Part shown: positions 2,334 to 54,690 of the stretch, in pieces
Numbering within the stretch: position 1 is the first letter of the stretch
How the letters are laid out: every line of letters starts with the position of its first letter
Virus record (IMG/VR): IMGVR_UViG_3300025126_000736
Length of the DNA stretch: 57,774 nt
Reading direction: 5' to 3' (one strand)
Origin: an uncultured virus (IMG/VR IMGVR_UViG_3300025126_000736)
Lineage: Duplodnaviria; Heunggongvirae; Uroviricota; Caudoviricetes
Position numbers and translations under genes: made by a program
Notes under the pieces: model-generated
The model's database searches: none
Seen by the model: only the letters and a program-made list of their open reading frames with translations
What the model was told of the DNA's origin: nothing

Positions 2334-2885
2334 TTAAAACCCCGAAACATTAAGTTGAGTGTTATGTATACTGATTGCATTCAAAGCCTTATTTTGCTCT
2401 TCTAATGGCATTTGTGCTAGTAAAGATTTAATATCTTCACGCTGATATAGTAAGTGGCAAATATCATTTCGATGATTTAAGTACGCAACCTTAAGAGGGT
2501 TAAAATTAAATATAGCAGGAAACATTAAATTGTGTGAGAGTAATAATTCAACAAGAGTAGTGTTACCATTAGCACAAGCAGTAAGTAATGCAAAGTTATT
2601 ATTAAGGCTTGGATCAACACCCTTATATTTAAGAAGATATGATGCTGAATTATTTAAATTGTGCATTACAAGAGATTGAAAAATAATATTATTTTCCTTT
2701 ATAGTGAGTGACTTTGTAGACTTTAGGATATCAACTAATATATTATCAAAAGAAGTAAAACTGTGATATTGAGAAATAAATAAAATTATGGATGAAAAAA
2801 TATCATCATCAAATTTATTGTTAATAAATAATGAATGAATGAGGGATATCGGCTTTAAAGGATTTTCTTTAAAAATAGTTAACAT
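2334..2885 (-). CDS. Ankyrin-repeat protein
   Basis: VDPSLNNNFALLTACANGNTTLVELLL; ends LNVSGF. Confidence 0.75.
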   Translation of the reverse strand: MLTIFKENPLKPISLIHSLFINNKFDDDIFSSIILFISQYHSFTSFDNILVDILKSTKSLTIKENNIIFQSLVMHNLNNSASYLLKYKGVDPSLNNNFALLTACANGNTTLVELLLSHNLMFPAIFNFNPLKVAYLNHRNDICHLLYQREDIKSLLAQMPLEEQNKALNAISIHNTQLNVSGF

Positions 2886-2933
2886 AAAATTGCCATAGTG
2901 AAAATAATTAAGTCATTATACTATGTTTATGTT

Positions 2934-3785
2934 TTAAAAACAATTGATTTTTATTTTATTAATCACTGTGTTCTTTATATCATCCATTATTTTATTGTCA
3001 TTTTTAAGCTTCAAAATAAAGTCGTTATCAAATATTGGATCAAAAAAGCCACTAAATATAAAATTAAATAAAATGTTTTTTTCTATATGAGTATAAGTAA
3101 TAATTTTATTAAAAAGACCATTAAATATAAATAATAAATCATTTTTTGAGTAACTAAGTTTATTAAATAAATTATTTTTTTCATCGTGTAAAATAAAATG
3201 ATAAGCAGTGGAAAGTTTATTATTTTGATTAATATATTGTAAATATTTTGGTTCCTTAAGAATAATTTCTTTAAGTAGAGTTAAATTATAAGAGAATGCT
3301 ACATTAATATTAATGCTAATGTTTTCTTCTGTTTCTTGATCAAGTTTAAGAATAATTTCTTTTGGATCAGAATTAGCTTCGATGTGGACGATAGACTCTG
3401 TAAGCTTGGTAAGCCTAATGTAAAAGTAAAAGCTTTTTTCAATAAATGAATTATTTTCAATGTAATCTAAAAAATGTATATGAAGTCTGCTAATAACAGC
3501 CCTTGATGAAGGGATAGGGTATTCAGTTATTAGTTGTTCTTCACCATCGTGCATTCCGTAATATCGAGTTAAGTTTTTATTATAATGGTGTATTCTCCTG
3601 TATTTAGTTCTAGGTTGACTGTCATTAAACTCAAAACAAAGCGTGTTAATGTCAAACCCCATATTTTTTAAAATTTTTAAATTTTTCTCAAAAAATAGAA
3701 TAGTATCCCTTTGAAAGGAAAGTGGAATGCCAGAAAAATTGGCAATAATTTTATTTTCATAACGAATACTTGCAGAAATAGACAT
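2934..3785 (-). CDS. Hypothetical protein with C-terminal K-I-x-x-F motif
   Basis: 283-aa ORF with GGAG SD; ends IKINCF. Confidence 0.6.
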   Translation of the reverse strand: MSISASIRYENKIIANFSGIPLSFQRDTILFFEKNLKILKNMGFDINTLCFEFNDSQPRTKYRRIHHYNKNLTRYYGMHDGEEQLITEYPIPSSRAVISRLHIHFLDYIENNSFIEKSFYFYIRLTKLTESIVHIEANSDPKEIILKLDQETEENISININVAFSYNLTLLKEIILKEPKYLQYINQNNKLSTAYHFILHDEKNNLFNKLSYSKNDLLFIFNGLFNKIITYTHIEKNILFNFIFSGFFDPIFDNDFILKLKNDNKIMDDIKNTVINKIKINCF

Positions 3786-8027: not shown

Positions 8028-8103
8028 TGGTGGGTGTGGAGGGATTCGAACCCACGACCTTCAGGTTAAAAGCCTGTTGCTCTACCAACTGAGCTACACA
8101 TCC
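8028..8103 (-). tRNA. tRNA-Lys(UUU), type A
   Basis: Cloverleaf GGATGTG...; anticodon arm ACAGG-CT-TTT-AA-CCTGA; encoded CCA. Confidence 0.95.
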
Positions 8104-8117
8104 AAAAAAAATAAAAC

Positions 8118-8193
8118 TGGTAGGCGCGGTGAGGTTCGAACTCACGACCAACTGGTTAAAAGCCAGATGCTCTACCAACTGAGCTACACGCCT
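8118..8193 (-). tRNA. tRNA-Lys(UUU), type B
   Basis: Cloverleaf AGGCGTG...; TCTGG-CT-TTT-AA-CCAGT; CCA. Confidence 0.95.
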
Positions 8194-8203
8194 AAAATAA
8201 AAC

Positions 8204-8279
8204 TGGTGGATGCGGTGGGGGTCGAACCCACGACCTTCAGGTTAAAAGCCTGTTGCTCTACCAACTGAGCTACACATCC
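8204..8279 (-). tRNA. tRNA-Lys(UUU), type A
   Basis: Tandem copy, TTT anticodon, CCA. Confidence 0.95.
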
Positions 8280-8293
8280 AAAAAAAATAAAAC

Positions 8294-8369
8294 TGGTAGG
8301 CGCGGTGAGGTTCGAACTCACGACCAACTGGTTAAAAGCCAGATGCTCTACCAACTGAGCTACACGCCT
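8294..8369 (-). tRNA. tRNA-Lys(UUU), type B
   Basis: Tandem copy, TTT anticodon, CCA. Confidence 0.95.
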
Positions 8370-8379
8370 AAAATAAAAC

Positions 8380-8455
8380 TGGTGGATGCGGTGGGGGTCG
8401 AACCCACGACCTTCAGGTTAAAAGCCTGTTGCTCTACCAACTGAGCTACACATCC
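8380..8455 (-). tRNA. tRNA-Lys(UUU), type A
   Basis: Tandem copy, TTT anticodon, CCA. Confidence 0.95.
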
Positions 8456-8468
8456 AAAAAAATAAAAC

Positions 8469-8544
8469 TGGTAGGCGTGGTGAGGTTCGAACTCACGACC
8501 AACTGGTTAAAAGCCAGATGCTCTACCAACTGAGCTACACGCCT
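8469..8544 (-). tRNA. tRNA-Lys(UUU), type B
   Basis: First Lys copy in transcription order, TTT anticodon, CCA. Confidence 0.95.
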
Positions 8545-8713: not shown

Positions 8714-8778
8714 TGGTTGGGGTAGTAGGATTCGAACCTACGACTATTAAGCACTTTAACCGCCCAAGCTCTACCCCA
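8714..8778 (-). ncRNA. 65-nt tRNA-like RNA lacking a normal anticodon arm
   Basis: 7-bp acceptor TGGGGTA/TACCCCA, T-arm GTAGG-TTCGAAT-CCTAC, D-like arm, ACCA end; only 11 nt between D and T arms. Confidence 0.65.
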
Positions 8779-8797: not shown

Positions 8798-8872
8798 TGG
8801 CGGGGAAGGTAGGATTTGAACCTACGACCTATCGGTTAACAGCCGACTGCTCTACCACTGAGCTACATCCCC
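8798..8872 (-). tRNA. tRNA-Asn(GUU)
   Basis: GGGGATG... GTCGG-CT-GTT-AA-CCGAT ... G73-CCA. Confidence 0.95.
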
Positions 8873-8892
8873 AAATTGTGTTACATTAAAAC

Positions 8893-8967
8893 TGGCGGGG
8901 AAGGTAGGATTTGAACCTACGACCTATCGGTTAACAGCCGACTGCTCTACCACTGAGCTACATCCCC
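8893..8967 (-). tRNA. tRNA-Asn(GUU)
   Basis: Copy in 95-bp-period array. Confidence 0.95.
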
Positions 8968-8987
8968 AAATTGTGTTACATTGAAAC

Positions 8988-9062
8988 TGGCGGGGAAGGT
9001 AGGATTTGAACCTACGACCTATCGGTTAACAGCCGACTGCTCTACCACTGAGCTACATCCCC
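8988..9062 (-). tRNA. tRNA-Asn(GUU)
   Basis: Copy in 95-bp-period array. Confidence 0.95.
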
Positions 9063-9082
9063 AAATTATATTACATTAAAAC

Positions 9083-9157
9083 TGGCGGGGAAGGTAGGGC
9101 TTGAACCTACGACCTATCGACATATCACCGAGTGCTCTACCACTGAGCTACATCCCC
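9083..9157 (-). tRNA. tRNA-Asn-derived variant with non-canonical anticodon loop (UGAUAUG)
   Basis: Body near-identical to tRNA-Asn; anticodon arm CTCGG-TGATATG-TCGAT. Confidence 0.75.
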
Positions 9158-9177
9158 AAATTATATTACATTAAAAC

Positions 9178-9252
9178 TGGCGGGGAAGGTAGGGCTTGAA
9201 CCTACGACCTATCGACATATCACCGAGTGCTCTACCACTGAGCTACATCCCC
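9178..9252 (-). tRNA. tRNA-Asn-derived variant with non-canonical anticodon loop
   Basis: Same variant as 9083..9157. Confidence 0.75.
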
Positions 9253-9272
9253 AAATTGTATTACATTAAAAC

Positions 9273-9347
9273 TGGCGGGGAAGGTAGGACTTGAACCTAC
9301 GACCTATCGGTTAACAGCCGACTGCTCTACCACTGAGCTACATCCCC
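9273..9347 (-). tRNA. tRNA-Asn(GUU)
   Basis: GTT anticodon, CCA. Confidence 0.95.
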
Positions 9348-9367
9348 AAATTATATTACATTAAAAC

Positions 9368-9442
9368 TGGCGGGGAAGGTAGGGCTTGAACCTACGACCT
9401 ATCGACATATCACCGAGTGCTCTACCACTGAGCTACATCCCC
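9368..9442 (-). tRNA. tRNA-Asn-derived variant with non-canonical anticodon loop
   Basis: Same variant as 9083..9157. Confidence 0.75.
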
Positions 9443-9462
9443 AAATTATATTACATTAAAAC

Positions 9463-9537
9463 TGGCGGGGAAGGTAGGGCTTGAACCTACGACCTATCGA
9501 CATATCACCGAGTGCTCTACCACTGAGCTACATCCCC
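9463..9537 (-). tRNA. tRNA-Asn-derived variant with non-canonical anticodon loop
   Basis: Same variant as 9083..9157. Confidence 0.75.
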
Positions 9538-9557
9538 AAATTGTATTACATTAAAAC

Positions 9558-9632
9558 TGGCGGGGAAGGTAGGACTTGAACCTACGACCTATCGGTTAAC
9601 AGCCGACTGCTCTACCACTGAGCTACATCCCC
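9558..9632 (-). tRNA. tRNA-Asn(GUU)
   Basis: First copy in transcription order, GTT anticodon. Confidence 0.95.
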
Positions 9633-9639
9633 AAAATAT

Positions 9640-9677
9640 AAAAAAACCCAAAAACTTTATTAATTAGTCTTTGGGTT
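9640..9677 (-). terminator. Attenuator-type terminator directly 5' of the tRNA-Asn block
   Basis: AACCCAAAGACT-loop-AGTTTTTGGGTT-TTTTT. Confidence 0.85.
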
Positions 9678-9724
9678 GATAACAAAGACTGCGATTTCGT
9701 TTCGCAGTCAAAAAAGAAACTGCG

Positions 9725-9769
9725 CTAAATATTTAAATTTCGTTTATTATTCTTATTAAGTGTTTTCAT
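9725..9769 (-). CDS. Putative Asn(/Lys)-sensing leader peptide MKTLNKNNKRNLNI
   Basis: TAAGGT SD; 5 AAT codons and 3 Lys codons in 14; followed by alternative hairpins and a terminator. Confidence 0.7.
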   Translation of the reverse strand: MKTLNKNNKRNLNI

Positions 9770-9814
9770 TTTTTTAGTTACCTTATATGTTTGTTGTCTT
9801 GCTTTATGTTTTAC

Positions 9815-9843
9815 ATTATTACACGTTAATTTAAGTCTGTCAA
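9815..9843 (-). promoter_or_regulatory. Sigma70-type inner promoter of the Asn/Lys tRNA operon
   Basis: TTGACA-17 bp-(TGT)AATAAT; IHF-like ATTCAAACACTTA at 9870..9882. Confidence 0.7.
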
Positions 9844-9921
9844 GCTTTTTTTAAAAATATTTTCAATTAATTCAAACACTTAAAAAAAATAAAAGAGTAG
9901 TGTCGATAATTAAAACGCAAT

Positions 9922-9954
9922 AAAAAACCTCTTAAAATTTCTTCCAAGAGGTTT
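9922..9954 (-). terminator. Terminator of outer Asn attenuator
   Basis: AAACCTCTTGGAA-loop-TTTTAAGAGGTTT-TTT. Confidence 0.75.
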
Positions 9955-10002
9955 AGAGTAAACGACTTGGAAGTTTTGGCTCCCAAGTATTGTTTTTTTA
10001 TT

Positions 10003-10080
10003 TTACAAAAGACAATAGGAAGTCATAACAATATTTTTATTGTTATTTATCTTATTATTTTTTGAAAAACTAAATGACAT
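10003..10080 (-). CDS. Putative outer Asn(/Lys)-sensing leader peptide MSFSFSKNNKINNNKNIVMTSYCLL
   Basis: TAAGGGT SD; KNNKINNNKN run; followed by alternative hairpins and a terminator. Confidence 0.7.
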   Translation of the reverse strand: MSFSFSKNNKINNNKNIVMTSYCLL

Positions 10081-10111
10081 AATGTTACCCTTATTTATTA
10101 AACTTAACTAT

Positions 10112-10140
10112 ATTATATATGACGAAAAAAATAAAGTCAA
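10112..10140 (-). promoter_or_regulatory. Sigma70-type outer promoter of the Asn/Lys tRNA operon
   Basis: TTGACT-17 bp-TATAAT. Confidence 0.75.
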
Positions 10141-20812: not shown

Positions 20813-21943
20813 ATGGTGTGGACTCAAAAAGATATAGGTAATATGATGAATGAAGATATTGATAAAGTGTTTGATTATTGTTTAAATGATGAAATTAATC
20901 TTTTTGATTATGATATGTCTTCGTTTTATAAAATATTATCCTCTAAAAATATAAGGTTTATTGAAATGTTAGATTCAAAAAATAAGTACAATAAAAACAT
21001 ATACAATTCTGATTTATTAAAGAATGCAGTGTATTTTGAGTCAGAAAAAATAGTTGAATTTATATTGAAGGATAAATCATTTAATATTGAGAATGAAGTG
21101 AAATATCGAATATTGGAAAACGCAGTGCATCTTGAAAAGCCAGATATTTTTAAATTATTAATGGCTGACGAAAGAATGGGTGACTTAGATGGTGTTAAGT
21201 TTACGAAATTATTGACGGGTTATATTGATAATCTGGAAATTTTAGAAATGTTGTTAAAAAATAATAAAGTGACCCCTTCTTATGATGTTTCAAATATATT
21301 ATCAAGTATTATTGGTAATAAAAGGATTCCTGATTCTGTTATTCATAATCATGTAAAAGTTATTTTAGATAGCAATAAAGTAAATCCAGTTGAAATAAAT
21401 AATGAGCCATTAAAAAAAGCTTGTCAGCTTGGCTATATTAAGGTTGTTAAGCTTTTATTGGCAGATCCTCGCATAAATCCACAGCAAAACATAGAAGAAT
21501 CATTATATTATGCTTCAAAAAATTGTCATTATGATATTATTATGTTGTTAATGAATGATAGTAGAATTACTGTAAAAGATGAAGATAATGATATATTTGA
21601 GGGAGCTTGTGTTTATGGAAATATCAAGTTGGTTGAGTTTTGGTTAGAAAATAAAATAACAACAAATAGAAATAAATCAGCGGGATTTTATCTTGCATGT
21701 AAAGAAGGTCATTATGAAATTGCTAAATTATTAATGAATAAAACGAAGATAAAAGTAAATGATTCATATCTTTGTTGTATAATGGATGCAATAGATTCAA
21801 AGCAATTCGAAATCGCAGAATTGTTATGGGATAATAAAAATATAAGAGAATTTTTAAAAAACACATACATTGAAGACTATAATGAGGCGTCTAAAATTAT
21901 ATTAAAAAGGAAAGTAGAGAGAAATATAAATGCATTTAATTAG
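20813..21943 (+). CDS. Ankyrin-repeat protein
   Basis: ACQLGYIKVVKLLLADPRINP, ACKEGHYEIAKLLM; ends RNINAFN. Confidence 0.85.
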   Translation: MVWTQKDIGNMMNEDIDKVFDYCLNDEINLFDYDMSSFYKILSSKNIRFIEMLDSKNKYNKNIYNSDLLKNAVYFESEKIVEFILKDKSFNIENEVKYRILENAVHLEKPDIFKLLMADERMGDLDGVKFTKLLTGYIDNLEILEMLLKNNKVTPSYDVSNILSSIIGNKRIPDSVIHNHVKVILDSNKVNPVEINNEPLKKACQLGYIKVVKLLLADPRINPQQNIEESLYYASKNCHYDIIMLLMNDSRITVKDEDNDIFEGACVYGNIKLVEFWLENKITTNRNKSAGFYLACKEGHYEIAKLLMNKTKIKVNDSYLCCIMDAIDSKQFEIAELLWDNKNIREFLKNTYIEDYNEASKIILKRKVERNINAFN

Positions 21944-22445: not shown

Positions 22446-23978
22446 ATGATAATGCAAAAAAGCAAAAGTAATGATGAGCAATATTACGTTTATGTCCAAG
22501 ACATAGATGGAACTCCGCTTATGCCGACCAAACGTTTTCGCAAAGTGAGACTTTTATTAAAAAAAGGTGAGGCGAAAGTCGTTTCTTACGATCCTTTCAC
22601 CATTAAAATGCTTTATAATGTAGGGAAAGAAGTTCAGACGCTTAATTTGGGCATTGATACAGGCACATCAAATATTGGCGTTTCTGTCACAACAAACGAA
22701 GGTAAAGAATTACTTTCTTCTACATTTAAAACAAACACATTAAAGATAAAAGGCACTATGGAAAAACGCCTTTCCCATAGACACACAAGAACACGATTCA
22801 AACGAGAAAAGAAAAAACGTAGAGCTATTGCTAATAACACTCATTTTAAGGGTGTTAAAGAATTTATGGCCTATGGCGCAAAAACCACAACAAAATACAA
22901 AGTAATTCGTTCTTCAATTTGTCGTTTAGAAAAGAAAGTTAAACATGGCAAGTTATCAAATACCGCGCAACATTGCCTTGATAATCACATCAATGTAGTC
23001 AACAAAATAAAGAAAATATTACCCATTAAAAACGTAATGGTAGAATATGCTTCATTCGATCTTCATAAGTTAATTAACCCCAATGTGAAAGGCGTTGATT
23101 ATCAAAAAGGGGCGCTCTATAATGAATTAAATCATAAATCTTATGTATTGAATAGAGATGGGCATACTTGTGTTTTGTGTAACAAAAGAAAAAAAGATGA
23201 GCTTGTCGAAGTGCATCATGTTATTTATAGATCTAATGGAGGTGCAGATCATTTTAATAATCTGGTCACTTTACACAGTGAATGTCATAAAAAAGTGCAT
23301 AATGATGTTAAAATAGAGGAAAATCTTTTTAACATAATTAAACAGAAAGATATTTTAAAAGAGACGATTCAAACAAAACAAGCCACTATTTTAAACAGTA
23401 TTATGTCACGATTTTTTCTATTTTTACATAATAATTTTGAATATGTAGAAGAAACTTTTGGTTATGAAACAAAAGCAAAACGTTATGAATACGGGATTGA
23501 TAAATCGCATAGTAATGATGCATTTGTTATTTCCTTTGGCAATAATAAGCCCAAAAAATTAAGTCGTGCGATAGAAATTGAATACGAACAATTTGCCAAT
23601 AACAAGCGTGTATTCATTTATGCAACGACAAAAAGAAGGTATACTACCACTATTGATGGTAAAAAAGTCACTGTTTATAATCGAAAAAAAGCAATGAACC
23701 AAAAAGAAGATTCTCTTGAAGAGTTTAGAGAAAAATACACTCAAAAACACGTTTCTCAACTAAAAGTATTGAAAGGTACAGTTAAGTTTCAAAATCGGTC
23801 AAATTATTCGTTTGAAAAGGGAGATTTGGTCAAGCTCAATGGAAAACTAAGGGTAATTTCAGGCAATACCAATAACGGAAGGTATGTAAGACTGAAAAAT
23901 GAGGGAGCAACTAATTTCAGCCCTAAAGAGTTAACAATGCTTAACCCTCGCCAAAATTTTAGAAGGATTAATTGGTAA
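22446..23978 (+). CDS. iscB: RNA-guided endonuclease IscB
   Basis: PLMP motif (GTPLMPT), RuvC-I GIDTG, Arg-rich bridge helix, RuvC-II VEYASFD, HNH CxxC...HH...NNL...CH, RuvC-III SHSNDA. Confidence 0.95.
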   Translation: MIMQKSKSNDEQYYVYVQDIDGTPLMPTKRFRKVRLLLKKGEAKVVSYDPFTIKMLYNVGKEVQTLNLGIDTGTSNIGVSVTTNEGKELLSSTFKTNTLKIKGTMEKRLSHRHTRTRFKREKKKRRAIANNTHFKGVKEFMAYGAKTTTKYKVIRSSICRLEKKVKHGKLSNTAQHCLDNHINVVNKIKKILPIKNVMVEYASFDLHKLINPNVKGVDYQKGALYNELNHKSYVLNRDGHTCVLCNKRKKDELVEVHHVIYRSNGGADHFNNLVTLHSECHKKVHNDVKIEENLFNIIKQKDILKETIQTKQATILNSIMSRFFLFLHNNFEYVEETFGYETKAKRYEYGIDKSHSNDAFVISFGNNKPKKLSRAIEIEYEQFANNKRVFIYATTKRRYTTTIDGKKVTVYNRKKAMNQKEDSLEEFREKYTQKHVSQLKVLKGTVKFQNRSNYSFEKGDLVKLNGKLRVISGNTNNGRYVRLKNEGATNFSPKELTMLNPRQNFRRINW

Positions 23979-24461: not shown

Positions 24462-24549
24462 TGGCAGAAGGTGTGAGATTCGAACTCACGGAGGAGTAAC
24501 CCTCGCTGATTTTCAAGACCAATGCCATAAACCGCTCGGCCAACCTTCT
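24462..24549 (-). tRNA. tRNA-Ser(UGA)
   Basis: Long variable arm; CT-TGA-AA loop; GCCA. Confidence 0.9.
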
Positions 24550-24554
24550 AAATT

Positions 24555-24630
24555 TGGGGTGAATGACGGGACTCGAACCCGCAACCATCTGGATCACAAC
24601 CAGAAGCTCTGCCATTGAGCTACAAGCACC
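24555..24630 (-). tRNA. tRNA-His(GUG)
   Basis: G-1/C73; TT-GTG-AT loop; two acceptor mismatches. Confidence 0.85.
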
Positions 24631-24644
24631 ATTGTGTGTAAATC

Positions 24645-24686
24645 TGGTGAAAAGGGAGGCCACTTAAACCACTCATGCACCTTTCC
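24645..24686 (-). pseudogene. Internally deleted tRNA-Ser (acceptor plus D arm only)
   Basis: Deletion between repeated CCTCCCT segments. Confidence 0.8.
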
Positions 24687-24700
24687 AAAATATATAAAAC

Positions 24701-24790
24701 TGGAGGAAGATAAGGGATTCGAACCCTTGTGCCGATCACTCGACCAACTGTTTTCAAGACAGAGCTAATAAGCCACTCTAGCAATCTTCC
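24701..24790 (-). tRNA. tRNA-Ser(UGA)
   Basis: GGAAGAT acceptor; CT-TGA-AA loop; long variable arm. Confidence 0.9.
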
Positions 24791-24808
24791 AAAATATGTA
24801 ACTAAATT

Positions 24809-24899
24809 TGGTGGAAAGGGAGGGATTCGAACCCTCGTGCCGATTTCTCGACTCACTCCTTAGTAGGGAGGCCATTTAAGCCAGCTCATGCACCTTTCC
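24809..24899 (-). tRNA. tRNA-Ser(ACU), A34 variant of Ser(GCU)
   Basis: CCTCC-CT-ACT-AA-GGAGT; otherwise identical to 25022..25112. Confidence 0.8.
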
Positions 24900-24913
24900 A
24901 AAATATATAAAAC

Positions 24914-25003
24914 TGGAGGAAGATAAGGGATTCGAACCCTTGTGCCGATCACTCGACCAACTGTTTTCAAGACAGAGCTAATAAGCCACTCTAGCAATCT
25001 TCC
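24914..25003 (-). tRNA. tRNA-Ser(UGA)
   Basis: CT-TGA-AA loop; long variable arm. Confidence 0.9.
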
Positions 25004-25021
25004 AAAATATGTAACTAAATT

Positions 25022-25112
25022 TGGTGGAAAGGGAGGGATTCGAACCCTCGTGCCGATTTCTCGACTCACTCCTTAGCAGGGAGGCCATTTAAGCCAGCTC
25101 ATGCACCTTTCC
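25022..25112 (-). tRNA. tRNA-Ser(GCU)
   Basis: CT-GCT-AA loop; long variable arm. Confidence 0.9.
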
Positions 25113-25126
25113 AAAATATATAAAAC

Positions 25127-25216
25127 TGGAGGAAGATAAGGGATTTGAACCCTCGTGCCGATTTCTCGACCATCTGTTTTCCAAACAGAGCTAATAAGCC
25201 ACTCTAGCAATCTTCC
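25127..25216 (-). tRNA. tRNA-Ser(GGA)
   Basis: TT-GGA-AA loop. Confidence 0.85.
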
Positions 25217-25234
25217 AAAATATGTAATTAAATC

Positions 25235-25324
25235 TGGTGGAAAGGGAGGGATTCGAACCCTCGTGCCGATTTCTCGACTCACTCCTTAGCAGGGAGGCCA
25301 CTTAAACCACTCATGCACCTTTCC
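25235..25324 (-). tRNA. tRNA-Ser(GCU)
   Basis: CT-GCT-AA loop. Confidence 0.9.
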
Positions 25325-25338
25325 AAAATATATAAAAC

Positions 25339-25428
25339 TGGAGGAAGATAAGGGATTTGAACCCTTGTGCCGATTTCTCGACCATCTGTTTTCCAAACAG
25401 AGCTAATAAGCCACTCTAGCAATCTTCC
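25339..25428 (-). tRNA. tRNA-Ser(GGA)
   Basis: TT-GGA-AA loop. Confidence 0.9.
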
Positions 25429-25446
25429 AAAATATGTAATTAAATC

Positions 25447-25488
25447 TGGTGGAAAGGGAGGCCACTTAAACCACTCATGCACCTTTCC
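25447..25488 (-). pseudogene. Internally deleted tRNA-Ser (acceptor plus D arm only)
   Basis: Same deletion as 24645..24686. Confidence 0.8.
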
Positions 25489-25502
25489 AAAATATATAAA
25501 AC

Positions 25503-25592
25503 TGGAGGAAGATAAGGGATTTGAACCCTTGTGCCGATCACTCGACCAACTGTTTTCAAGACAGAGCTAATAAGCCACTCTAGCAATCTTCC
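25503..25592 (-). tRNA. tRNA-Ser(UGA)
   Basis: CT-TGA-AA loop. Confidence 0.9.
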
Positions 25593-25606
25593 AAAATATG
25601 TAAATC

Positions 25607-25694
25607 TGGCAGAAGATGTGAGATTCGAACTCACGGAGGAGTAACCCTCGCTGGGTTTCAAGACCAGTGCCATAAACCGCTCGGCCAATCTTCT
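25607..25694 (-). tRNA. tRNA-Ser(UGA)
   Basis: AGAAGAT acceptor; CT-TGA-AA loop; GCCA. Confidence 0.88.
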
Positions 25695-25699
25695 AAATT

Positions 25700-25775
25700 T
25701 GGGGTGCATGACGGGACTCGAACCCGCAACCATCTGGATCACAACCAGAAGCTCTGCCATTGAGCTACAAACACC
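25700..25775 (-). tRNA. tRNA-His(GUG)
   Basis: G-1/C73; TT-GTG-AT loop. Confidence 0.9.
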
Positions 25776-25789
25776 ATTGTATGTAAATA

Positions 25790-25880
25790 TGGTGGAAAGG
25801 GAGGGATTCGAACCCTCGTGCCGATTTTTCGGCTCACTCCTTAGCAGGGAGGCCATTTAAGCCATCTCATGCACCCTTCC
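25790..25880 (-). tRNA. tRNA-Ser(GCU)
   Basis: First in transcription order; CT-GCT-AA loop. Confidence 0.9.
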
Positions 25881-25890
25881 AAAATTTCAT

Positions 25891-25926
25891 AAAAAACCCT
25901 CTTTAAGTGTAACCTAAAGAGGGTTT
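25891..25926 (-). terminator. Attenuator-type terminator directly 5' of the Ser/His tRNA block
   Basis: AAACCCTCTTTAGG-loop-CTTAAAGAGGGTTT-TTT. Confidence 0.88.
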
Positions 25927-25976
25927 CTTTAAGGTTAGTTTATCAATGACAAACTAACCTATATAGAGGTAGTCTA

Positions 25977-26039
25977 TCAAATATGTTTGCTACTCGAATG
26001 TAGCGAATAAGCGCTGTAATGTGAATTAATGTTTTTCAT
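25977..26039 (-). CDS. Putative Ser/His-sensing leader peptide MKNINSHYSAYSLHSSSKHI
   Basis: AAGGT SD; 6 Ser and 3 His codons in 20; followed by alternative hairpins and a terminator. Confidence 0.82.
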   Translation of the reverse strand: MKNINSHYSAYSLHSSSKHI

Positions 26040-26081
26040 TTTAGTTAATACCTTTTAGTGTGTGTCTCTATTATGTTTAAC

Positions 26082-26110
26082 ATTATGTCATGTAAAAATC
26101 ATTATGTCAA
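26082..26110 (-). promoter_or_regulatory. Sigma70-type inner promoter of the Ser/His tRNA operon
   Basis: TTGACA-17 bp-(TGA)CATAAT; IHF consensus match AATCAATGACTTA at 26137..26149. Confidence 0.75.
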
Positions 26111-26190
26111 TAGTTTTTTTAAATATTTTTCAATTAAATCAATGACTTAAAATAAAAATAGCATTACCCCTCATTAATAAAAAAATGCAT

Positions 26191-26223
26191 AAAAAAAACC
26201 TTGAAGTTTTGCCTTCAAGGTTT
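26191..26223 (-). terminator. Terminator of outer Ser/His attenuator
   Basis: AAACCTTGAAG-loop-CTTCAAGGTTT-TTTTT. Confidence 0.85.
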
Positions 26224-26280
26224 AAAATTGCAATAATTTTATGTTGAAGGCTTGTCTTGACAAACCTTCGTAAACGAAGT

Positions 26281-26364
26281 TTAAGTTTGCATTAGACATA
26301 GGAAAACGGAACTAGAAGAACTAGAACTCGAATGACTATGTGAATGTGCTTTAAAATTAAACAT
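26281..26364 (-). CDS. Putative outer Ser/His-sensing leader peptide MFNFKAHSHSHSSSSSSSSVFLCLMQT
   Basis: AAGGCG SD; 13 consecutive His/Ser codons using mixed Ser codons (TCA, AGT, TCG, TCT, TCC); hairpins and a terminator follow. Confidence 0.85.
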   Translation of the reverse strand: MFNFKAHSHSHSSSSSSSSVFLCLMQT

Positions 26365-26405
26365 TTTTTATTCGCCTTTTTAATTTAATTATTTATAATA
26401 TTTAC

Positions 26406-26434
26406 ATTGTAATATAGTTATTTAAAAATATCAA
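26406..26434 (-). promoter_or_regulatory. Sigma70-type outer promoter of the Ser/His tRNA operon
   Basis: TTGATA-17 bp-TACAAT. Confidence 0.65.
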
Positions 26435-26441
26435 GCTTTTT

Positions 26442-27059
26442 TTAAATTTTATAATTATTTTTAATATTAACTGTGTTTTCTGTATTAGAGTTATTTAAAA
26501 ATAAATCAATATCGTTAATTTTCTTAATATCTAAAAGAATGTCATTAGCCCACTCAATTTGATTGTCGAATTTAGATAGCATAGAACGTAATTCAATAGT
26601 GCTTGTTTTTTTTGATATGGATTGATTGAGATAATAAGGGTCTGGATCAATATTAAATCTCATTAAATCAAGTCTGTCAGCGTCCCAACAAGTGGCGATA
26701 TCAAGATCATCATGATAAAGTTCATCAGTGTGACCAGAGCAAGCAGAAAAAACTTTTTCAAATTCATGTTCAGTTAAATTGATCTTATCTTTATATAAGT
26801 TCATTAATAAGGCTCCACGAAATCCATGATCAGGGTCGTTTGCATCATTTTCACGTTGACTATCATGAAAGAAACCAAAGGCAATAATAACCTTTGGATT
26901 AGCATTATTATGTTCTGATAAAAATAATCCATTCTCAATAACTCTAGCCCAGTGTTGAAAGCCATGTTTCCCTGAAAATACATCAAGATCAAATTTTTTG
27001 AAAATTGAATTTATAACTTCTTTTGGAATGACATCATAGATGTCTTTTTTCGTAATCAT
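26442..27059 (-). CDS. HD-domain phosphohydrolase
   Basis: HGFQHWARV, FHDS.R..D..D..HG, CWDADRLDL. Confidence 0.85.
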   Translation of the reverse strand: MITKKDIYDVIPKEVINSIFKKFDLDVFSGKHGFQHWARVIENGLFLSEHNNANPKVIIAFGFFHDSQRENDANDPDHGFRGALLMNLYKDKINLTEHEFEKVFSACSGHTDELYHDDLDIATCWDADRLDLMRFNIDPDPYYLNQSISKKTSTIELRSMLSKFDNQIEWANDILLDIKKINDIDLFLNNSNTENTVNIKNNYKI

Positions 27060-27118
27060 TTGTGTGTGTAATCCTATTTAATGTAAAGTATATAATTATT
27101 ATACCATAAAAAAATAAA

Positions 27119-28389: not shown

Positions 28390-29003
28390 TTATACTAAAT
28401 TCACTCTAATTGGCTGAAAGACACAGCCACTATTGATTAGATTTCCTAGGAAACCATCACCAATTGCTTTTCTCATTATATTTAAAGCACCATTAACATC
28501 AGCATTGATTAATTTTCCAATACTTGATTGATACAATCCTCTTTGCTTTCTTTTTCCTTTAAATTTATACTTTTCTTTGTTAGCTTTATTAAAGATAGGC
28601 AATATATCATAAGCTAACGCATCGCTTTTAGAGGTATAACTTTCCTCTTGAAAAACAACCTCAACACCTATTTCCATTAATTTATACTCCATAAATGAAA
28701 TAAGTAATTCAAAAGGGATCATAGTGAATTTTTGATTATTCACTTTGCCAATATTAATATCTTGTTTCCAAAAGTTGTTTTTACCAATAATAACCTGTCC
28801 GATATTATGTGTTAAACAATAATTTTTAACAAATAAACTTATTTTATGAAATATGTCTTTCATCGCTAAATGTCTTTTTAACGCAATATTATTCATGAAT
28901 GCATGATTGTTTTTATGTCGATAATAAGCCATTGATTTATTGTATTGTTGATTAATGGATTTAATAACTTTTCCGTTTATCAAGATGGGTCTTAAATCAT
29001 CTT
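28390..29003 (-). pseudogene. tnpB: 5'-truncated TnpB (IS200/IS605)
   Basis: RPILINGK, QEESYTSK, INADVNGALNI; hairpin end at 28271..28320. Confidence 0.85.
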
Positions 29004-49543: not shown

Positions 49544-50614
49544 ATGAGAAAAAATATAAATAAAAAACTATTAATCGCATTACTAATAAGTGGTGTATTC
49601 AAAATATCTGCGAATGATATTGATATGGTGAGGATGGCTGAGTCAGGTGATTCATTGCAACAATATAAATTAGCAGAAAGTTATGCTATTGGAAACGAAA
49701 ATATAAAAAAAGATATGAAGAAGTCTGCTAAATGGTATTTAAGATCTGCTCAACAAGGTTATGCAAAATCTCAGTATGTAATAGCAACAATGTATGCTAC
49801 TGGTAATGGTGTTGATTATGATCAAGAAAAGGCTTTTAAATGGTATTTACGCTCCGCTAATCAAGGTTATTTAAAGTCGCAGTATGAATTAAGCTCTATT
49901 TATTATATAGAGGGAGATGAGGTTCAATCATTAAAATGGAAAATAAAGGCAGCATCTCAAAATCACACAAAATCACTTTATGAATTATCATCACTTTATA
50001 ATTTGAAGTCTAATTTTTCTTCTGGTGATATGAGTAGTTTTGGAGACTATTTATTGAAAGCAGAAAGTGGTGATGAAGGGGAGATGTATAATGTTGGACT
50101 ATTATTATTAAATGGATATGGTGTAGTAAAAAACAAGGAAGAAGGATTTAAGTGGATACTTAAAGCCTCAGAAAATAATTTTATTGCTGCTGAAAAAACA
50201 CTAGGTGAACTATATATGCTTGGAGAAGGGGTAGAGGTAAATAAAAAAGATGCTTTTGATTGGTTTTTAAAAGCTGCAGAACAGGGAGATCAAAATGCTC
50301 AAAACAATATAAGTATTTTGTATTATACTGGGGAAGGTGTAATAAAAAACAATAGTGAGTCATTTAAATGGGCAATGAAATCAGCAAAGAACGGGAATAA
50401 TATAGCACAATATAACCTTGGATTATTTTATTTTAAAGGTGAAGGTGTAAAAAAATCTAATAAAGAATCATATAAGTGGTTTTATTTATCAAAAAATGCA
50501 GGAAATAAAAAAGCAGCAAAAGAAATTAAATTAGTTGAAAATAATTTAACCTCCAAAGAGTTAAAGGGTATAGTTAAAGAAGCCAATGAGATAGTTGTGA
50601 AAATAAATGATTAA
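49544..50614 (+). CDS. Secreted Sel1-repeat protein
   Basis: Multiple A..W...SA.QG...AQY.LG..Y..G.GV repeats; signal peptide. Confidence 0.92.
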   Translation: MRKNINKKLLIALLISGVFKISANDIDMVRMAESGDSLQQYKLAESYAIGNENIKKDMKKSAKWYLRSAQQGYAKSQYVIATMYATGNGVDYDQEKAFKWYLRSANQGYLKSQYELSSIYYIEGDEVQSLKWKIKAASQNHTKSLYELSSLYNLKSNFSSGDMSSFGDYLLKAESGDEGEMYNVGLLLLNGYGVVKNKEEGFKWILKASENNFIAAEKTLGELYMLGEGVEVNKKDAFDWFLKAAEQGDQNAQNNISILYYTGEGVIKNNSESFKWAMKSAKNGNNIAQYNLGLFYFKGEGVKKSNKESYKWFYLSKNAGNKKAAKEIKLVENNLTSKELKGIVKEANEIVVKIND

Positions 50615-52571: not shown

Positions 52572-54143
52572 TTAAAACTTAAAGCCTTCTTCGTTTAATA
52601 TTTTTTTTATTTCTTTTTCTGAATTATTATAATCTTCTATTGATAAATTGAAGTCATTTAGTATTTCCCTATAATTTAAACAAGCATCTTCTACCATTTT
52701 TTTTAATGAAATTATTTTAGTAATATCTTCATCAAAACATTCGCTTCCTCCATTTATATCTTTCATTATATGGAACATCGGCTTTCTTTGTTTTGAAAAC
52801 GTTTTTAATATCCAATACTCTGATAGTAAACTTTGTATATTTTTTAATTTAAGTGTGGTTTGGTTTATGATTTTAATTCCATTGTTTTTTAATTTTATAC
52901 TTGAGTACCTACTATTGACTCCTCTATGAGTTAATCCTATTTTGTAAAAAATTTTACCCTTAAATTGAAATGTGATATAATAAAGTATTCTATCTTTTTG
53001 AAATTGTTTTGTTTTTGTTAAGCACTTTTTTAAATCTTGCCCTTCTATTGAGCATTTTGGACAACCTCCTCCATTATTTAACTTATGTATAGTGGGGTTC
53101 CATTTTTTTTCAAAAAAATCTCCAATACCATGAACTTCGCACTTCATTATGCATTTTGAGTGAACTGTTTTGTATCCTTCTACAAATCCAATGACTTCAT
53201 ATTTTTTAGAAACATTATCTTTTAAACGTTCTAATGCTTCATTTTCTGTATATCTGTATAAGCCTAAACATTTAGGGCACCCCTTGGATTTTTTTAAACT
53301 ATTTATTGTTGGGAGCCAAGGATTGCCCCATTCAGAGGAGTTTCCATGCACTTTACACTCAACAATACATTTGGTTTGCATATTGTTATTTTTGCCAACA
53401 AAAGATAATGCTTTTATTTTTTTATTATTTAATTGCTTATTTAAACACGCTACTGTTTCTTTTAATATTTTTGTATTACTTTTGCGTGTGCCATATAATT
53501 TATTGCATTTGGGGCATTGTTGTCCATGTTTTAATTGGGATAAGCTAGGAGTCCAAGGAATTCCCCATTTAGAGCTGTCACCATGTATTATGCACTCCAT
53601 TATGCATTTTGATTGCAAATTTTTAAATTTACCACCAATAAACCTTAAAAATAAATATTTGCCTTTTATTGTCTGATTTAAGTCAGATAAAGCTTCTTGA
53701 TCTGTTTGTTTGTAATTTCCATAACATTTAGGACAACCATGACCTTTTTTCAATGTATCAAAATATGGAATCCAAGGATTTCCCCATTTAGAACTGTCTC
53801 CATGAATGCTACAATTTAAAATAACGGCATATTTTTTTTGTTCTTTTTTAATACTTAGTACAGAAAGATTATTAGAAAGATATTTTTTTAATTCTGCTCT
53901 TAATTCTCTTTCTGATTTTACATATCGATTTGAGCATTTAGGACAGCCTGAACCATATCTTAAATTGTCAAATGTTGGAGTCCAAGGTGTATCCCATCCT
54001 AAACCATTTCCATGTATTTTGCATATAATTGAACATTTTGAGTGAATATTTTTATATTCAGACTCAAGAAATCCTACAACGGTATAGTCATCGTTTATGA
54101 TTTTATTGAGTTCTATTATTTTTTCACTACTAATTTCGTTCAT
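52572..54143 (-). CDS. Zn-ribbon repeat protein with C-terminal GIY-YIG/T5orf172-like nuclease domain
   Basis: Five C..HG...W.P....L....CPKC repeats; LYYITF...YKIGLT...RY...E...GGSECF. Confidence 0.7.
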   Translation of the reverse strand: MNEISSEKIIELNKIINDDYTVVGFLESEYKNIHSKCSIICKIHGNGLGWDTPWTPTFDNLRYGSGCPKCSNRYVKSERELRAELKKYLSNNLSVLSIKKEQKKYAVILNCSIHGDSSKWGNPWIPYFDTLKKGHGCPKCYGNYKQTDQEALSDLNQTIKGKYLFLRFIGGKFKNLQSKCIMECIIHGDSSKWGIPWTPSLSQLKHGQQCPKCNKLYGTRKSNTKILKETVACLNKQLNNKKIKALSFVGKNNNMQTKCIVECKVHGNSSEWGNPWLPTINSLKKSKGCPKCLGLYRYTENEALERLKDNVSKKYEVIGFVEGYKTVHSKCIMKCEVHGIGDFFEKKWNPTIHKLNNGGGCPKCSIEGQDLKKCLTKTKQFQKDRILYYITFQFKGKIFYKIGLTHRGVNSRYSSIKLKNNGIKIINQTTLKLKNIQSLLSEYWILKTFSKQRKPMFHIMKDINGGSECFDEDITKIISLKKMVEDACLNYREILNDFNLSIEDYNNSEKEIKKILNEEGFKF

Positions 54144-54204: not shown

Positions 54205-54690
54205 TTAGGTATTGGGCATCTTGTATGTAATCGAATTATCTAAATTATCAAGTAATAGCTTAAATATTTTGGTATTATTATTGAAATGGGCTGTATTTAA
54301 TGCTGTTAAGTAGCCATTATATAGAGATATGTTTCTTTTTTTTAACAATAATTGGGTCATTAAAAAATTGTTATTTTGGACTGCATAATTAAGGCAAGAG
54401 TTATTGAGTATAGTTGGGTCAACCAAATCAAAATCCAATAAAAGATCAGCTATGGCAAAGTGAGAGTTTTTAAAGGCCGCTCGAATAGAAAATTGATTAC
54501 TTACCGTGACGTCAACGTTTTTATTTTTTATTAATATTTTAAAAATATTTAAATCTCCACGAGAAGATGTGATCTTTAATGCATGATCTTTTAAATAAGA
54601 GTAGTCAATTTTTGCATTTTTAATTAAAAATTTGATGCTTGCAAGATCATTATTAAAAATAGCTTGCTGGAATTTTAGTTGCGTGTTCAT
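54205..54690 (-). CDS. Ankyrin-repeat protein
   Basis: VDVTVSNQFSIRAAFKNSHFAIADLLL, VDPTILNNSCLNYAV. Confidence 0.75.
   Translation of the reverse strand: MNTQLKFQQAIFNNDLASIKFLIKNAKIDYSYLKDHALKITSSRGDLNIFKILIKNKNVDVTVSNQFSIRAAFKNSHFAIADLLLDFDLVDPTILNNSCLNYAVQNNNFLMTQLLLKKRNISLYNGYLTALNTAHFNNNTKIFKLLLDNLDNSITYKMPNT

Follow-up and report, generated by a model that had tools for sequence, protein, structure and literature searches.

Two tandem candidate leader-peptide attenuators ahead of a serine/histidine tRNA gene array on a probable phage genome

The 57,774-nucleotide (nt) record IMGVR_UViG_3300025126_000736 of an uncultured virus (IMG/VR), referred to here as the window, carries on its minus strand an array of transfer RNA (tRNA) genes for serine and histidine. 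Directly upstream of this array (minus strand, 26434-25881) lie two full units in series, each made up of a promoter, an AAGG motif, a short open reading frame (ORF), overlapping hairpins and a terminator. We propose, at a probability of about 0.7, that these are two tandem ribosome-mediated leader-peptide attenuators of transcription which gate the Ser/His tRNA array, on what is probably a phage. The sequence anatomy, the match between leader codons and array anticodons, the paralogy with units ahead of asparagine and lysine tRNA genes, and the existence of predicted alternative folds can all be observed. The two units and the array are laid out as follows.

26434-26406, minus strand: outer promoter, TTGATA-17-TACAAT, 10 of 12 matches, about 35 nt upstream of the leader ATG
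26378-26375, minus strand: outer Shine-Dalgarno-like AAGG, 14 nt before the ATG
26364-26281, minus strand: outer leader ORF of 27 codons, MFNFKAHSHSHSSSSSSSSVFLCLMQT and stop, rank 1 of 683 ORFs for Ser+His density
26279-26244, minus strand: outer segments A (CUUCG, 26279-26275), B (26270-26260) and C (26255-26244), from folding
26223-26191, minus strand: outer terminator D:E plus T8, 5' arm 26223-26212 and 3' arm 26206-26196, 11 pairs, from a consensus scan
26137-26082, minus strand: inner promoter, an A/T-rich block TTAATTGAAAAATATTTAAAAAAA followed by TTGACA-17-TG-n-CATAAT, 11 of 12 matches and a TG
26039-25977, minus strand: inner leader ORF of 20 codons, MKNINSHYSAYSLHSSSKHI and stop, rank 2 of 683 ORFs for Ser+His
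25979-25927, minus strand: inner segments A (25979-25967), B (25960-25947) and C (25944-25927), from folding
25926-25891, minus strand: inner terminator D:E plus T6, 5' arm 25926-25913 and 3' arm 25907-25894, folding as an 18-pair hairpin plus U6
24462-25880, minus strand: Ser/His array of 13 tRNA genes, 11 Ser and 2 His, with CCA encoded in all

Both leader ORFs are exactly as the original prediction, made from the sequence alone, had written them, including a run of 13 consecutive His/Ser codons in the outer leader. This run forms residues 7-19 of the peptide and consists of CAT (three times), TCA, TCG, TCT (three times), TCC and AGT (four times). In the inner peptide, 9 of 20 residues are Ser or His, encoded by TCA, TCG (twice), AGC (twice), AGT and CAT (three times); its AAGG stands 15 nt before the ATG, and its TGA stop codon is followed by a TAG. 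The downstream array had been said to hold only Ser and His tRNAs, which ARAGORN bears out, calling Ser-TGA (five genes), Ser-GCT (three), Ser-GGA (two), Ser-ACT (one) and His-GTG (two). When the leader codons TCA, TCG, TCT, TCC, AGT, AGC and CAT are set against the array anticodons UGA, GGA, GCU, ACU and GUG, each set is fully covered by the other, and both Ser codon boxes (TCA/TCG/TCT/TCC and AGT/AGC) are sampled, as claimed. No protein gene is found on the minus strand ahead of 24462, downstream of the leaders; the genes that follow are the 13 tRNA genes, and not the biosynthesis or synthetase genes targeted by classical attenuators.

Leader composition was compared with that of every ATG ORF in the window with 10 or more codons, 683 over both strands, scored as Ser+His per stretch of 13 residues. 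The outer leader scores 13 (rank 1), the inner leader 8 (rank 2) and the next ORF 7. Ser makes up 7.3% and His 2.2% of residues in the long ORFs of the window, and AT bias therefore cannot yield the two leader frames, in agreement with the earlier statement on this point. The assertion that the outer run is not a DNA microsatellite needs qualification. It is not one, and 7 of the codons are non-repetitive, but Tandem Repeats Finder reports an in-frame 9-nt tandem duplication (26309-26326) that takes in the other 6 of the 13; the run grew partly by duplication of three codons. An AAGG at -12 to -15 is present in all five leaders of the window (the Ser/His pair and three described below), compared with 10.3% of random positions and 37 of 61 long ORFs, a coincidence expected at about 1e-5 by chance. 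Its presence upstream of all five argues for a bacterial host. The two Ser promoters are sigma-70-like, and the four promoters of the Ser and Asn units score 10-11 of 12 matches.

ARAGORN finds 28 tRNA genes in the whole window, all on the minus strand and sorted by isotype into three arrays. The Asn and Lys arrays are also preceded by units of the same kind, with the following coordinates.

9925-10140, minus strand: outer Asn unit, promoter TTGACT-17-TATAAT, B:C hairpin, terminator 9954-9925
10080-10003, minus strand: outer Asn leader, MSFSFSKNNKINNNKNIVMTSYCLL and stop, rank 1 of 683 for Asn+Lys (9 of 10), tied first for Asn
9633-9870, minus strand: inner Asn unit, promoter TTGACA-17-TG-AATAAT, hairpins, terminator 9676-9646, adjoining the Asn array
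9769-9725, minus strand: inner Asn leader, MKTLNKNNKRNLNI and stop
8798-9632, minus strand: Asn array, five tRNA-Asn(GUU) genes alternating with four Asn-derived genes that have an odd anticodon loop
8545-8690, minus strand: Lys unit, AAGGA, hairpins, terminator 8583-8554, adjoining the Lys array
8673-8635, minus strand: Lys leader, MKTFKSKKSKKP and stop, rank 1 of 683 for Lys (6 of 10)
8028-8544, minus strand: Lys array, six tRNA-Lys(UUU) genes

Between the inner Ser and inner Asn units, the upstream block, -35 element, spacer and -10 element match at nearly every base, and the two diverge from the leader onward; the exact 24-nt pattern of the promoter block occurs in the window only at 26114-26137 and 9847-9870. 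The outer Ser and outer Asn ORFs have common ends (MF.F.K and ..CL..) and different middles. The Asn leaders mix Asn and Lys codons, and in each of the five units the terminator ends 78-85 nt after the stop codon. No promoter specific to the Lys unit, which is located between the Asn and Lys arrays, was detected. Leaders with Asn/Lys and Lys codons ahead of the matching arrays are what a codon-matched sensor predicts. Promoter paralogy, together with leader codons that track each array, suggests a common cassette that has been rewritten to fit the downstream tRNAs, and this apparent rewriting is the strongest argument for selection on the codon content of the leaders.

The leader regions fold far more stably than dinucleotide shuffles, at -50.5 compared with -28.4 ± 3.7 kcal/mol for the outer region (z = -6.0) and -51.0 compared with -25.2 ± 3.4 kcal/mol for the inner (z = -7.5), with none of 200 shuffles as good in either case. 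Both follow a five-segment plan in which A starts at the stop codon or just after it, B:C is a strong hairpin, C is complementary to D, and D, as the 5' arm, forms the terminator with E. In the outer unit A:B is a 5-bp hairpin lengthened by pairing with the 3' end of the ORF, B:C a hairpin of 10 bp, and the antiterminator an 8-bp helix between C and D at 26218-26211 (GCCUUCAA:UUGAAGGC; -12.7 kcal/mol). In the inner unit A is UGAUAGACUACCU (25979-25967), whose first letters are the stop codon, and it pairs with 25960-25947 through 13 pairs with one bulge. Inner B:C is a hairpin of 13 bp, and D (25920-25909) can pair with C (25938-25927). All of the helices listed in the original prediction exist in the folds, with inner A longer than it had stated. 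The inner terminator ends about 10 nt ahead of the first tRNA (25880); the consensus scan does not list it and it is visible in the fold only, likely because its stem takes up part of the U tract.

On this layout we infer leader translation, a kinetic choice between folds and a physiological trigger. A sigma-70-type promoter would start transcription of each unit, and the short ORF would be translated at once. With fast decoding of the Ser and His codons, the ribosome would reach the stop codon and cover segment A, so that B pairs with C and D remains available to form the D:E terminator, about 80 nt past the stop codon; transcription would then end, in the inner unit about 10 nt before the first tRNA. 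If charged cognate tRNA is scarce, the ribosome would stall on the Ser/His codons and leave A free. A:B would then form, C would pair with D, no terminator would arise and RNA polymerase would enter the array. The sensed quantity would be the decoding rate of the leader codons, i.e. the supply of charged cognate tRNA, and the output more of the same tRNA. Since tRNA-Ser and tRNA-His would be both product and sensed molecule, this would amount to negative-feedback, supply-on-demand control of tRNA level. Transcripts from the outer promoter would face both checkpoints and those from the inner promoter one.

The predicted switch was examined using the minimum free energy (MFE) fold of the RNA made before segment E, taking only the part 3' of the ribosome (the pre-E fold). 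In the outer unit this gives A:B with C:D when the A site is on codons up to 25, all Ser/His codons included, and B:C with D free on codons 26-28. In the inner unit, A:B and C:D are found on codons 13-17 (L H S S S) and 5-8, and B:C on codons 18-21 and 9-12. Three further quantities were compared with shuffles in all five units, and the numbers of shuffles that do as well are given below.

C:D duplex energy: outer Ser 10/500, inner Ser 293/500, outer Asn 2/500, inner Asn 2/500, Lys 32/500
B:C hairpin: outer Ser 2/500, inner Ser 0/500, outer Asn 0/500, inner Asn 27/500, Lys 2/500
D-arm pairing probability, stalled minus at-stop: outer Ser 9/200, inner Ser 84/200, outer Asn 92/200, inner Asn 37/200, Lys 72/200

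C:D beats shuffles in four of the five units (the outer Asn helix being CUUCCAAG:CUUGGAAG), with a Fisher combination of about 1e-4. As a predicted switch the outer Ser unit is well supported, and the other four units are supported mainly through the shared architecture. The sequence features of the proposed attenuator, namely promoter, AAGG, codon run, terminator and overlapping helices, all occur in two tandem copies; the ensemble switch exceeds shuffles in the outer unit only.

About 20 DNA runs with the label aquifer metagenome contain the stretch, as do four metatranscriptome runs. Contigs from three RNA-library runs were aligned to 25600-27100. In all three, contigs identical to the window (25708-26100, 25835-26058 and 25837-26058) run from the inner leader through its terminator into the first tRNA. 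Two RNA contigs from different studies end at 26058, about 17 nt past the start predicted from the -10 element, at a point where the DNA contig runs on. These contigs hint weakly at use of the inner promoter and at read-through by some transcripts. None of the three RNA-library runs covers bins 26110-26160 and 26212-26262, and such contig holes are uninformative on termination. A 38-nt piece of the terminator tail (26168-26207) also occurs in RNA and DNA contigs with a 2-nt deletion and with flanks unlike the window on both sides; its source is a second locus, or a different element in these samples, with a near-identical terminator.

Several observations weigh against attenuation in the form proposed. 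At equilibrium the full-length RNA folds into the terminator for every ribosome placement (27 outer, 20 inner), so that the model depends on kinetic, co-transcriptional folding; such behaviour is expected of kinetically controlled attenuators, but leaves the model unproven by thermodynamics. Inner C:D is present in the pre-E fold, and taken alone is no stronger than in shuffles (293/500). The outer Asn and Lys units lack a clean MFE switch, and the D-arm ensemble index is unremarkable in every unit except outer Ser. RNA-library contigs may be DNA carry-over and show no ends, levels or regulation. Protein and DNA-pattern searches found no relative with these arrays, and hence no cross-genome conservation or covariation. 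Finally, extra tRNA is no remedy for amino-acid starvation, and the logic needs tRNA itself to be limiting, as it might be when an AT-rich genome relies for its expression on a host whose tRNA pool is different, or if host tRNAs are destroyed.

The equilibrium folds and the unremarkable switch index in four of five units would also suit hairpins that are constitutive terminators or insulators between transcription units, with the short ORFs as untranslated chance frames, and at 27% GC content Lys- and Asn-rich frames arise readily. Against this stand the Ser/His frames, which go beyond AT bias and, as ranks 1 and 2 of 683, lie exactly before a Ser/His array. The top Lys and Asn+Lys frames likewise precede their own arrays, the AAGG is properly spaced in all five leaders (about 1e-5 by chance), and a fixed stop 10 nt before 13 tRNA genes with no downstream promoter would silence them; we regard constitutive termination as distinctly improbable. 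A reading that we find unlikely accepts that the leaders are translated and that Ser/His decoding is sensed, and places the output in ribonuclease processing or stability of the tRNA precursor, or in Rho-dependent polarity. The mixed thermodynamic support for a terminator/antiterminator switch agrees with it, as do the RNA-library contigs that span the inner terminator in three of three runs. Yet each unit is closed by a canonical hairpin and a tract of U6-U8, a segment complementary to the terminator 5' arm beats shuffles in four of five units, and the pre-E folds switch with ribosome position in both Ser units.

His/Ser-rich peptides can bind metal, and the short ORFs, which have promoters and ribosome sites, might encode functional small peptides with a metal-binding or regulatory role whose proximity to tRNA genes is incidental. 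The paralogous cassettes, however, swap the peptide middle to Asn/Lys or Lys along with the downstream tRNAs, which fits selection on codons and not on the peptide, and makes this very improbable. Direct sensing of uncharged tRNA by the leader RNA, T-box-like and without translation, would share with T-boxes the use of terminator/antiterminator alternatives and the matching of codon to tRNA. It is nevertheless extremely improbable: T-boxes do not read runs of many codons, the roughly 85 nt after the ORF are too short for a Stem I/specifier architecture, and no T-box or riboswitch match is found at E values up to 10 in 25860-26480 or at gathering score across the window. Rfam at gathering score returns tRNA matches only for the whole window, with no leader or attenuator family. 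Sub-threshold matches in 25860-26480 are SpF22 (36 bits, cut-off 55), the trpB motif (29, cut-off 59), PyrR (28, cut-off 54) and Phe_leader (26, cut-off 55).

If ribosome-mediated attenuation does operate here, its purpose may lie in conflict with the host. According to PMC12409363, PMC10264068 and PMC11555353, phages make good the loss of host tRNAs to cleavage by the PARIS nuclease AriB with Lys(UUU) and Asn(GUU) tRNAs of their own, and escape of phage T5 requires its own variants of those tRNAs (PMC12409363). The window likewise encodes Lys(UUU) and Asn(GUU) tRNAs, in neighbouring multi-copy arrays. Sensing or regulation of phage tRNA genes is not mentioned in the passages and abstracts consulted from these three papers. 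The AriB site in E. coli target tRNAs is given as U36AAUC|A41, with U at position 39 (PMC12409363). Both tRNA-Lys types (8028-8544) and tRNA-Asn (8798-9632) of the window have C at position 39 and not U, and one Lys type also differs at position 41. No nuclease link is drawn for the Ser array; a term search of a paper on bacterial Schlafen (PMC13056530) found no mention of tRNA-Ser as a target. A counter-defence role of the arrays is plausible. More tentatively, and on a reading that we hold to be less likely than not, the attenuators could be a viral sensor of host tRNA depletion that fires isotype-specific replacement tRNAs, an inducible counter-defence built from a rewritable cassette. Nuclease cleavage of host tRNAs, or AT-rich codon demand in excess of the host pool, would then stall ribosomes on the leader codons and set off a burst of multi-copy tRNA, which would be switched off after decoding recovers.

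The design is not confined to the window. In an independent survey of 53 viral loci sharing a tRNA-Lys word, 117 tRNA blocks with at least 150 nt upstream and 215 upstream ORFs were scored by a binomial on ORF residues that belong to the amino acids of the following tRNA block. One clear case emerged, the best of the 215 ORFs, on an unrelated viral contig of 40% GC (L206). The element (2712-2960, minus strand) has a promoter-like site and a 39-residue ORF, of which 30 residues come from the nine amino acids of the following block of 12 tRNAs (binomial 3.8e-5, about 0.008 corrected for 215 tests). After the ORF, and directly before the first tRNA, lies a 14-pair terminator with a U10 tract, and an 8-nt stretch in the last codons of the ORF (GAUCCGGA) is complementary to the terminator 5' arm. 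It appears to be an independent, multivalent version of the same leader, terminator and tRNA design. At another locus (L243), a Val-rich ORF (VVVVV) 233 nt upstream of tRNA-Val was not significant after correction, and no terminator was evident between the two, as read by eye and unscanned.

Searches for closer relatives of the window returned little. A single-query search of IMG/VR with the HD-domain protein that adjoins the leader (26442-27059) found none, and an alignment of 17 homologues found relatives at up to 44% identity only. Two relatives at 57-58% identity were found among metagenome contigs (L102 and L103), neither with a tRNA within 10 kilobases (kb) or any other window protein in common among the 45 queried. 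For NrdD, 25 IMG/VR loci were found, none with a tRNA nearby; of the five largest records, four have no tRNA at all and one an unsorted cluster. The inner promoter block pattern gave 0 matches in IMG/VR, the pattern of the odd Asn-derived tRNA 0 matches, and an Asn-tRNA word 0 matches in genome contigs. A distant blastn against named phages matched the tRNA genes alone. The single match to a Ser-tRNA word (L182) was an unrelated phage fragment of higher GC without leader units.

The source element is probably a large AT-rich phage of an aquifer bacterium. GC content is 25-32% across the window, the tRNA arrays excepted. Pfam and PHROG scans of 60 window ORFs matched an anaerobic ribonucleotide reductase and its activase, adenylate kinase, RNA ligase, RNase H and an HD-domain protein, along with HNH/RRXRR and TnpB-like genes and several ankyrin and Sel1 repeat proteins; most of the remaining ORFs among those scanned had no family match. 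NrdD is closest (61%) to the NrdD of Vibrio phages of about 190 kb, and relatives of the HD protein are carried by contigs as long as 400-530 kb and by one Vibrio phage of 239 kb. No virion gene was found in the window. Genes of mobile-element type around the Ser/His array encode an RRXRR and HNH protein of 510 amino acids (22446-23978, plus strand), a short TnpB/Cas12f-like TNB-domain protein (28390-28983, minus strand) and a CapR/HNH endonuclease (52572-54143, minus strand). There are five ankyrin-repeat proteins (62-658, 1763-2380, 2334-2885, 20813-21943 and 54205-54690) and one Sel1-repeat protein (49544-50614), and the surrounding 57 kb are phage-like and largely unannotatable.

The arrays themselves show signs of rearrangement. 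At gathering score the Rfam tRNA model reports 10 of the 13 Ser/His array genes, leaving out Ser(ACT) at 24809-24899 and both Ser(GGA) genes. The Ser(ACT) gene (minus strand) differs from the Ser(GCT) copy at 25022-25112 only by a G to A change at the wobble position. Two internally deleted Ser(GCT) remnants (25429-25502 and 24630-24700, minus strand) have the 5' part fused to the 3' end and CCA, and a 62-nt tRNA-like remnant (8717-8778, minus strand; Rfam 38.7 bits) lies between the Asn array and the Lys leader. Such remnants and repeated modules point to frequent recombination inside the arrays. In the Asn array, four identical genes (9083-9157, 9178-9252, 9368-9442 and 9463-9537, minus strand) are called Tyr(ATA) by ARAGORN. 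These are copies of the neighbouring tRNA-Asn with a rewritten anticodon stem-loop, in which the stem is weakened and the loop reads UGAUAUG, giving G at position 33 and U at position 37. They also carry one D-stem and one T-stem change relative to tRNA-Asn, and score 53 bits compared with 75-77 for the Asn copies. They may be decoys, may have acquired a new identity or may be decaying.

Attenuation that apparently acts on tRNA genes would link decoding speed and tRNA supply in a direct feedback loop, on a genome that is mobile and probably viral. If this is so, it would account for the ability of phages with large isotype-sorted tRNA arrays to avoid constitutive synthesis, and would tie such arrays to the recently recognised arms race over tRNA-cleaving defence systems. 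It would also provide a natural, portable, codon-specific reporter of tRNA availability, and the five paralogous cassettes of the window would show how the sensor can be re-targeted by rewriting a dozen codons.

Leader-peptide attenuation is known for amino-acid biosynthesis and synthetase genes. The pheST attenuator of E. coli is alike in that a leader peptide controls a component of translation for the same amino acid; it differs in regulating a synthetase and not a tRNA, and in being a chromosomal, single unit with Phe codons. T-box riboswitches likewise couple the charging state of tRNA to terminator read-through upstream of translation-related genes, but bind tRNA directly without translation, whereas the leaders described here carry translatable codon runs.

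Attenuators of amino-acid operons are reviewed in PMC1183508. The his leader and the multivalent ilv leaders share with the Ser/His units a promoter-proximal ORF with a run of regulatory codons, overlapping hairpins, an intrinsic terminator and a fold picked by ribosome position, and the multivalence of ilv resembles the Ser+His bivalence seen here. In contrast to leaders of the his/ilv type, which control biosynthetic enzymes, the Ser/His units precede tRNA genes whose product would be the sensed molecule; they also have five segments, with A starting at the stop codon, are probably phage-borne and show no sequence or Rfam homology. The mgtCBR leader of Salmonella, according to PMC3641672, has two short ORFs in series, each thought to govern stem-loop choice. 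There, a single promoter and leader respond to proline- and ATP-related signals, whereas each unit of the window has its own promoter and terminator and both are directed at the same amino acids. Full-text literature searches gave no account of leader-peptide attenuation of tRNA genes, most subscription journals lying outside their coverage, so that publication is possible. The mechanism would be that of classical leader-peptide attenuators, applied here to genes of a different kind.

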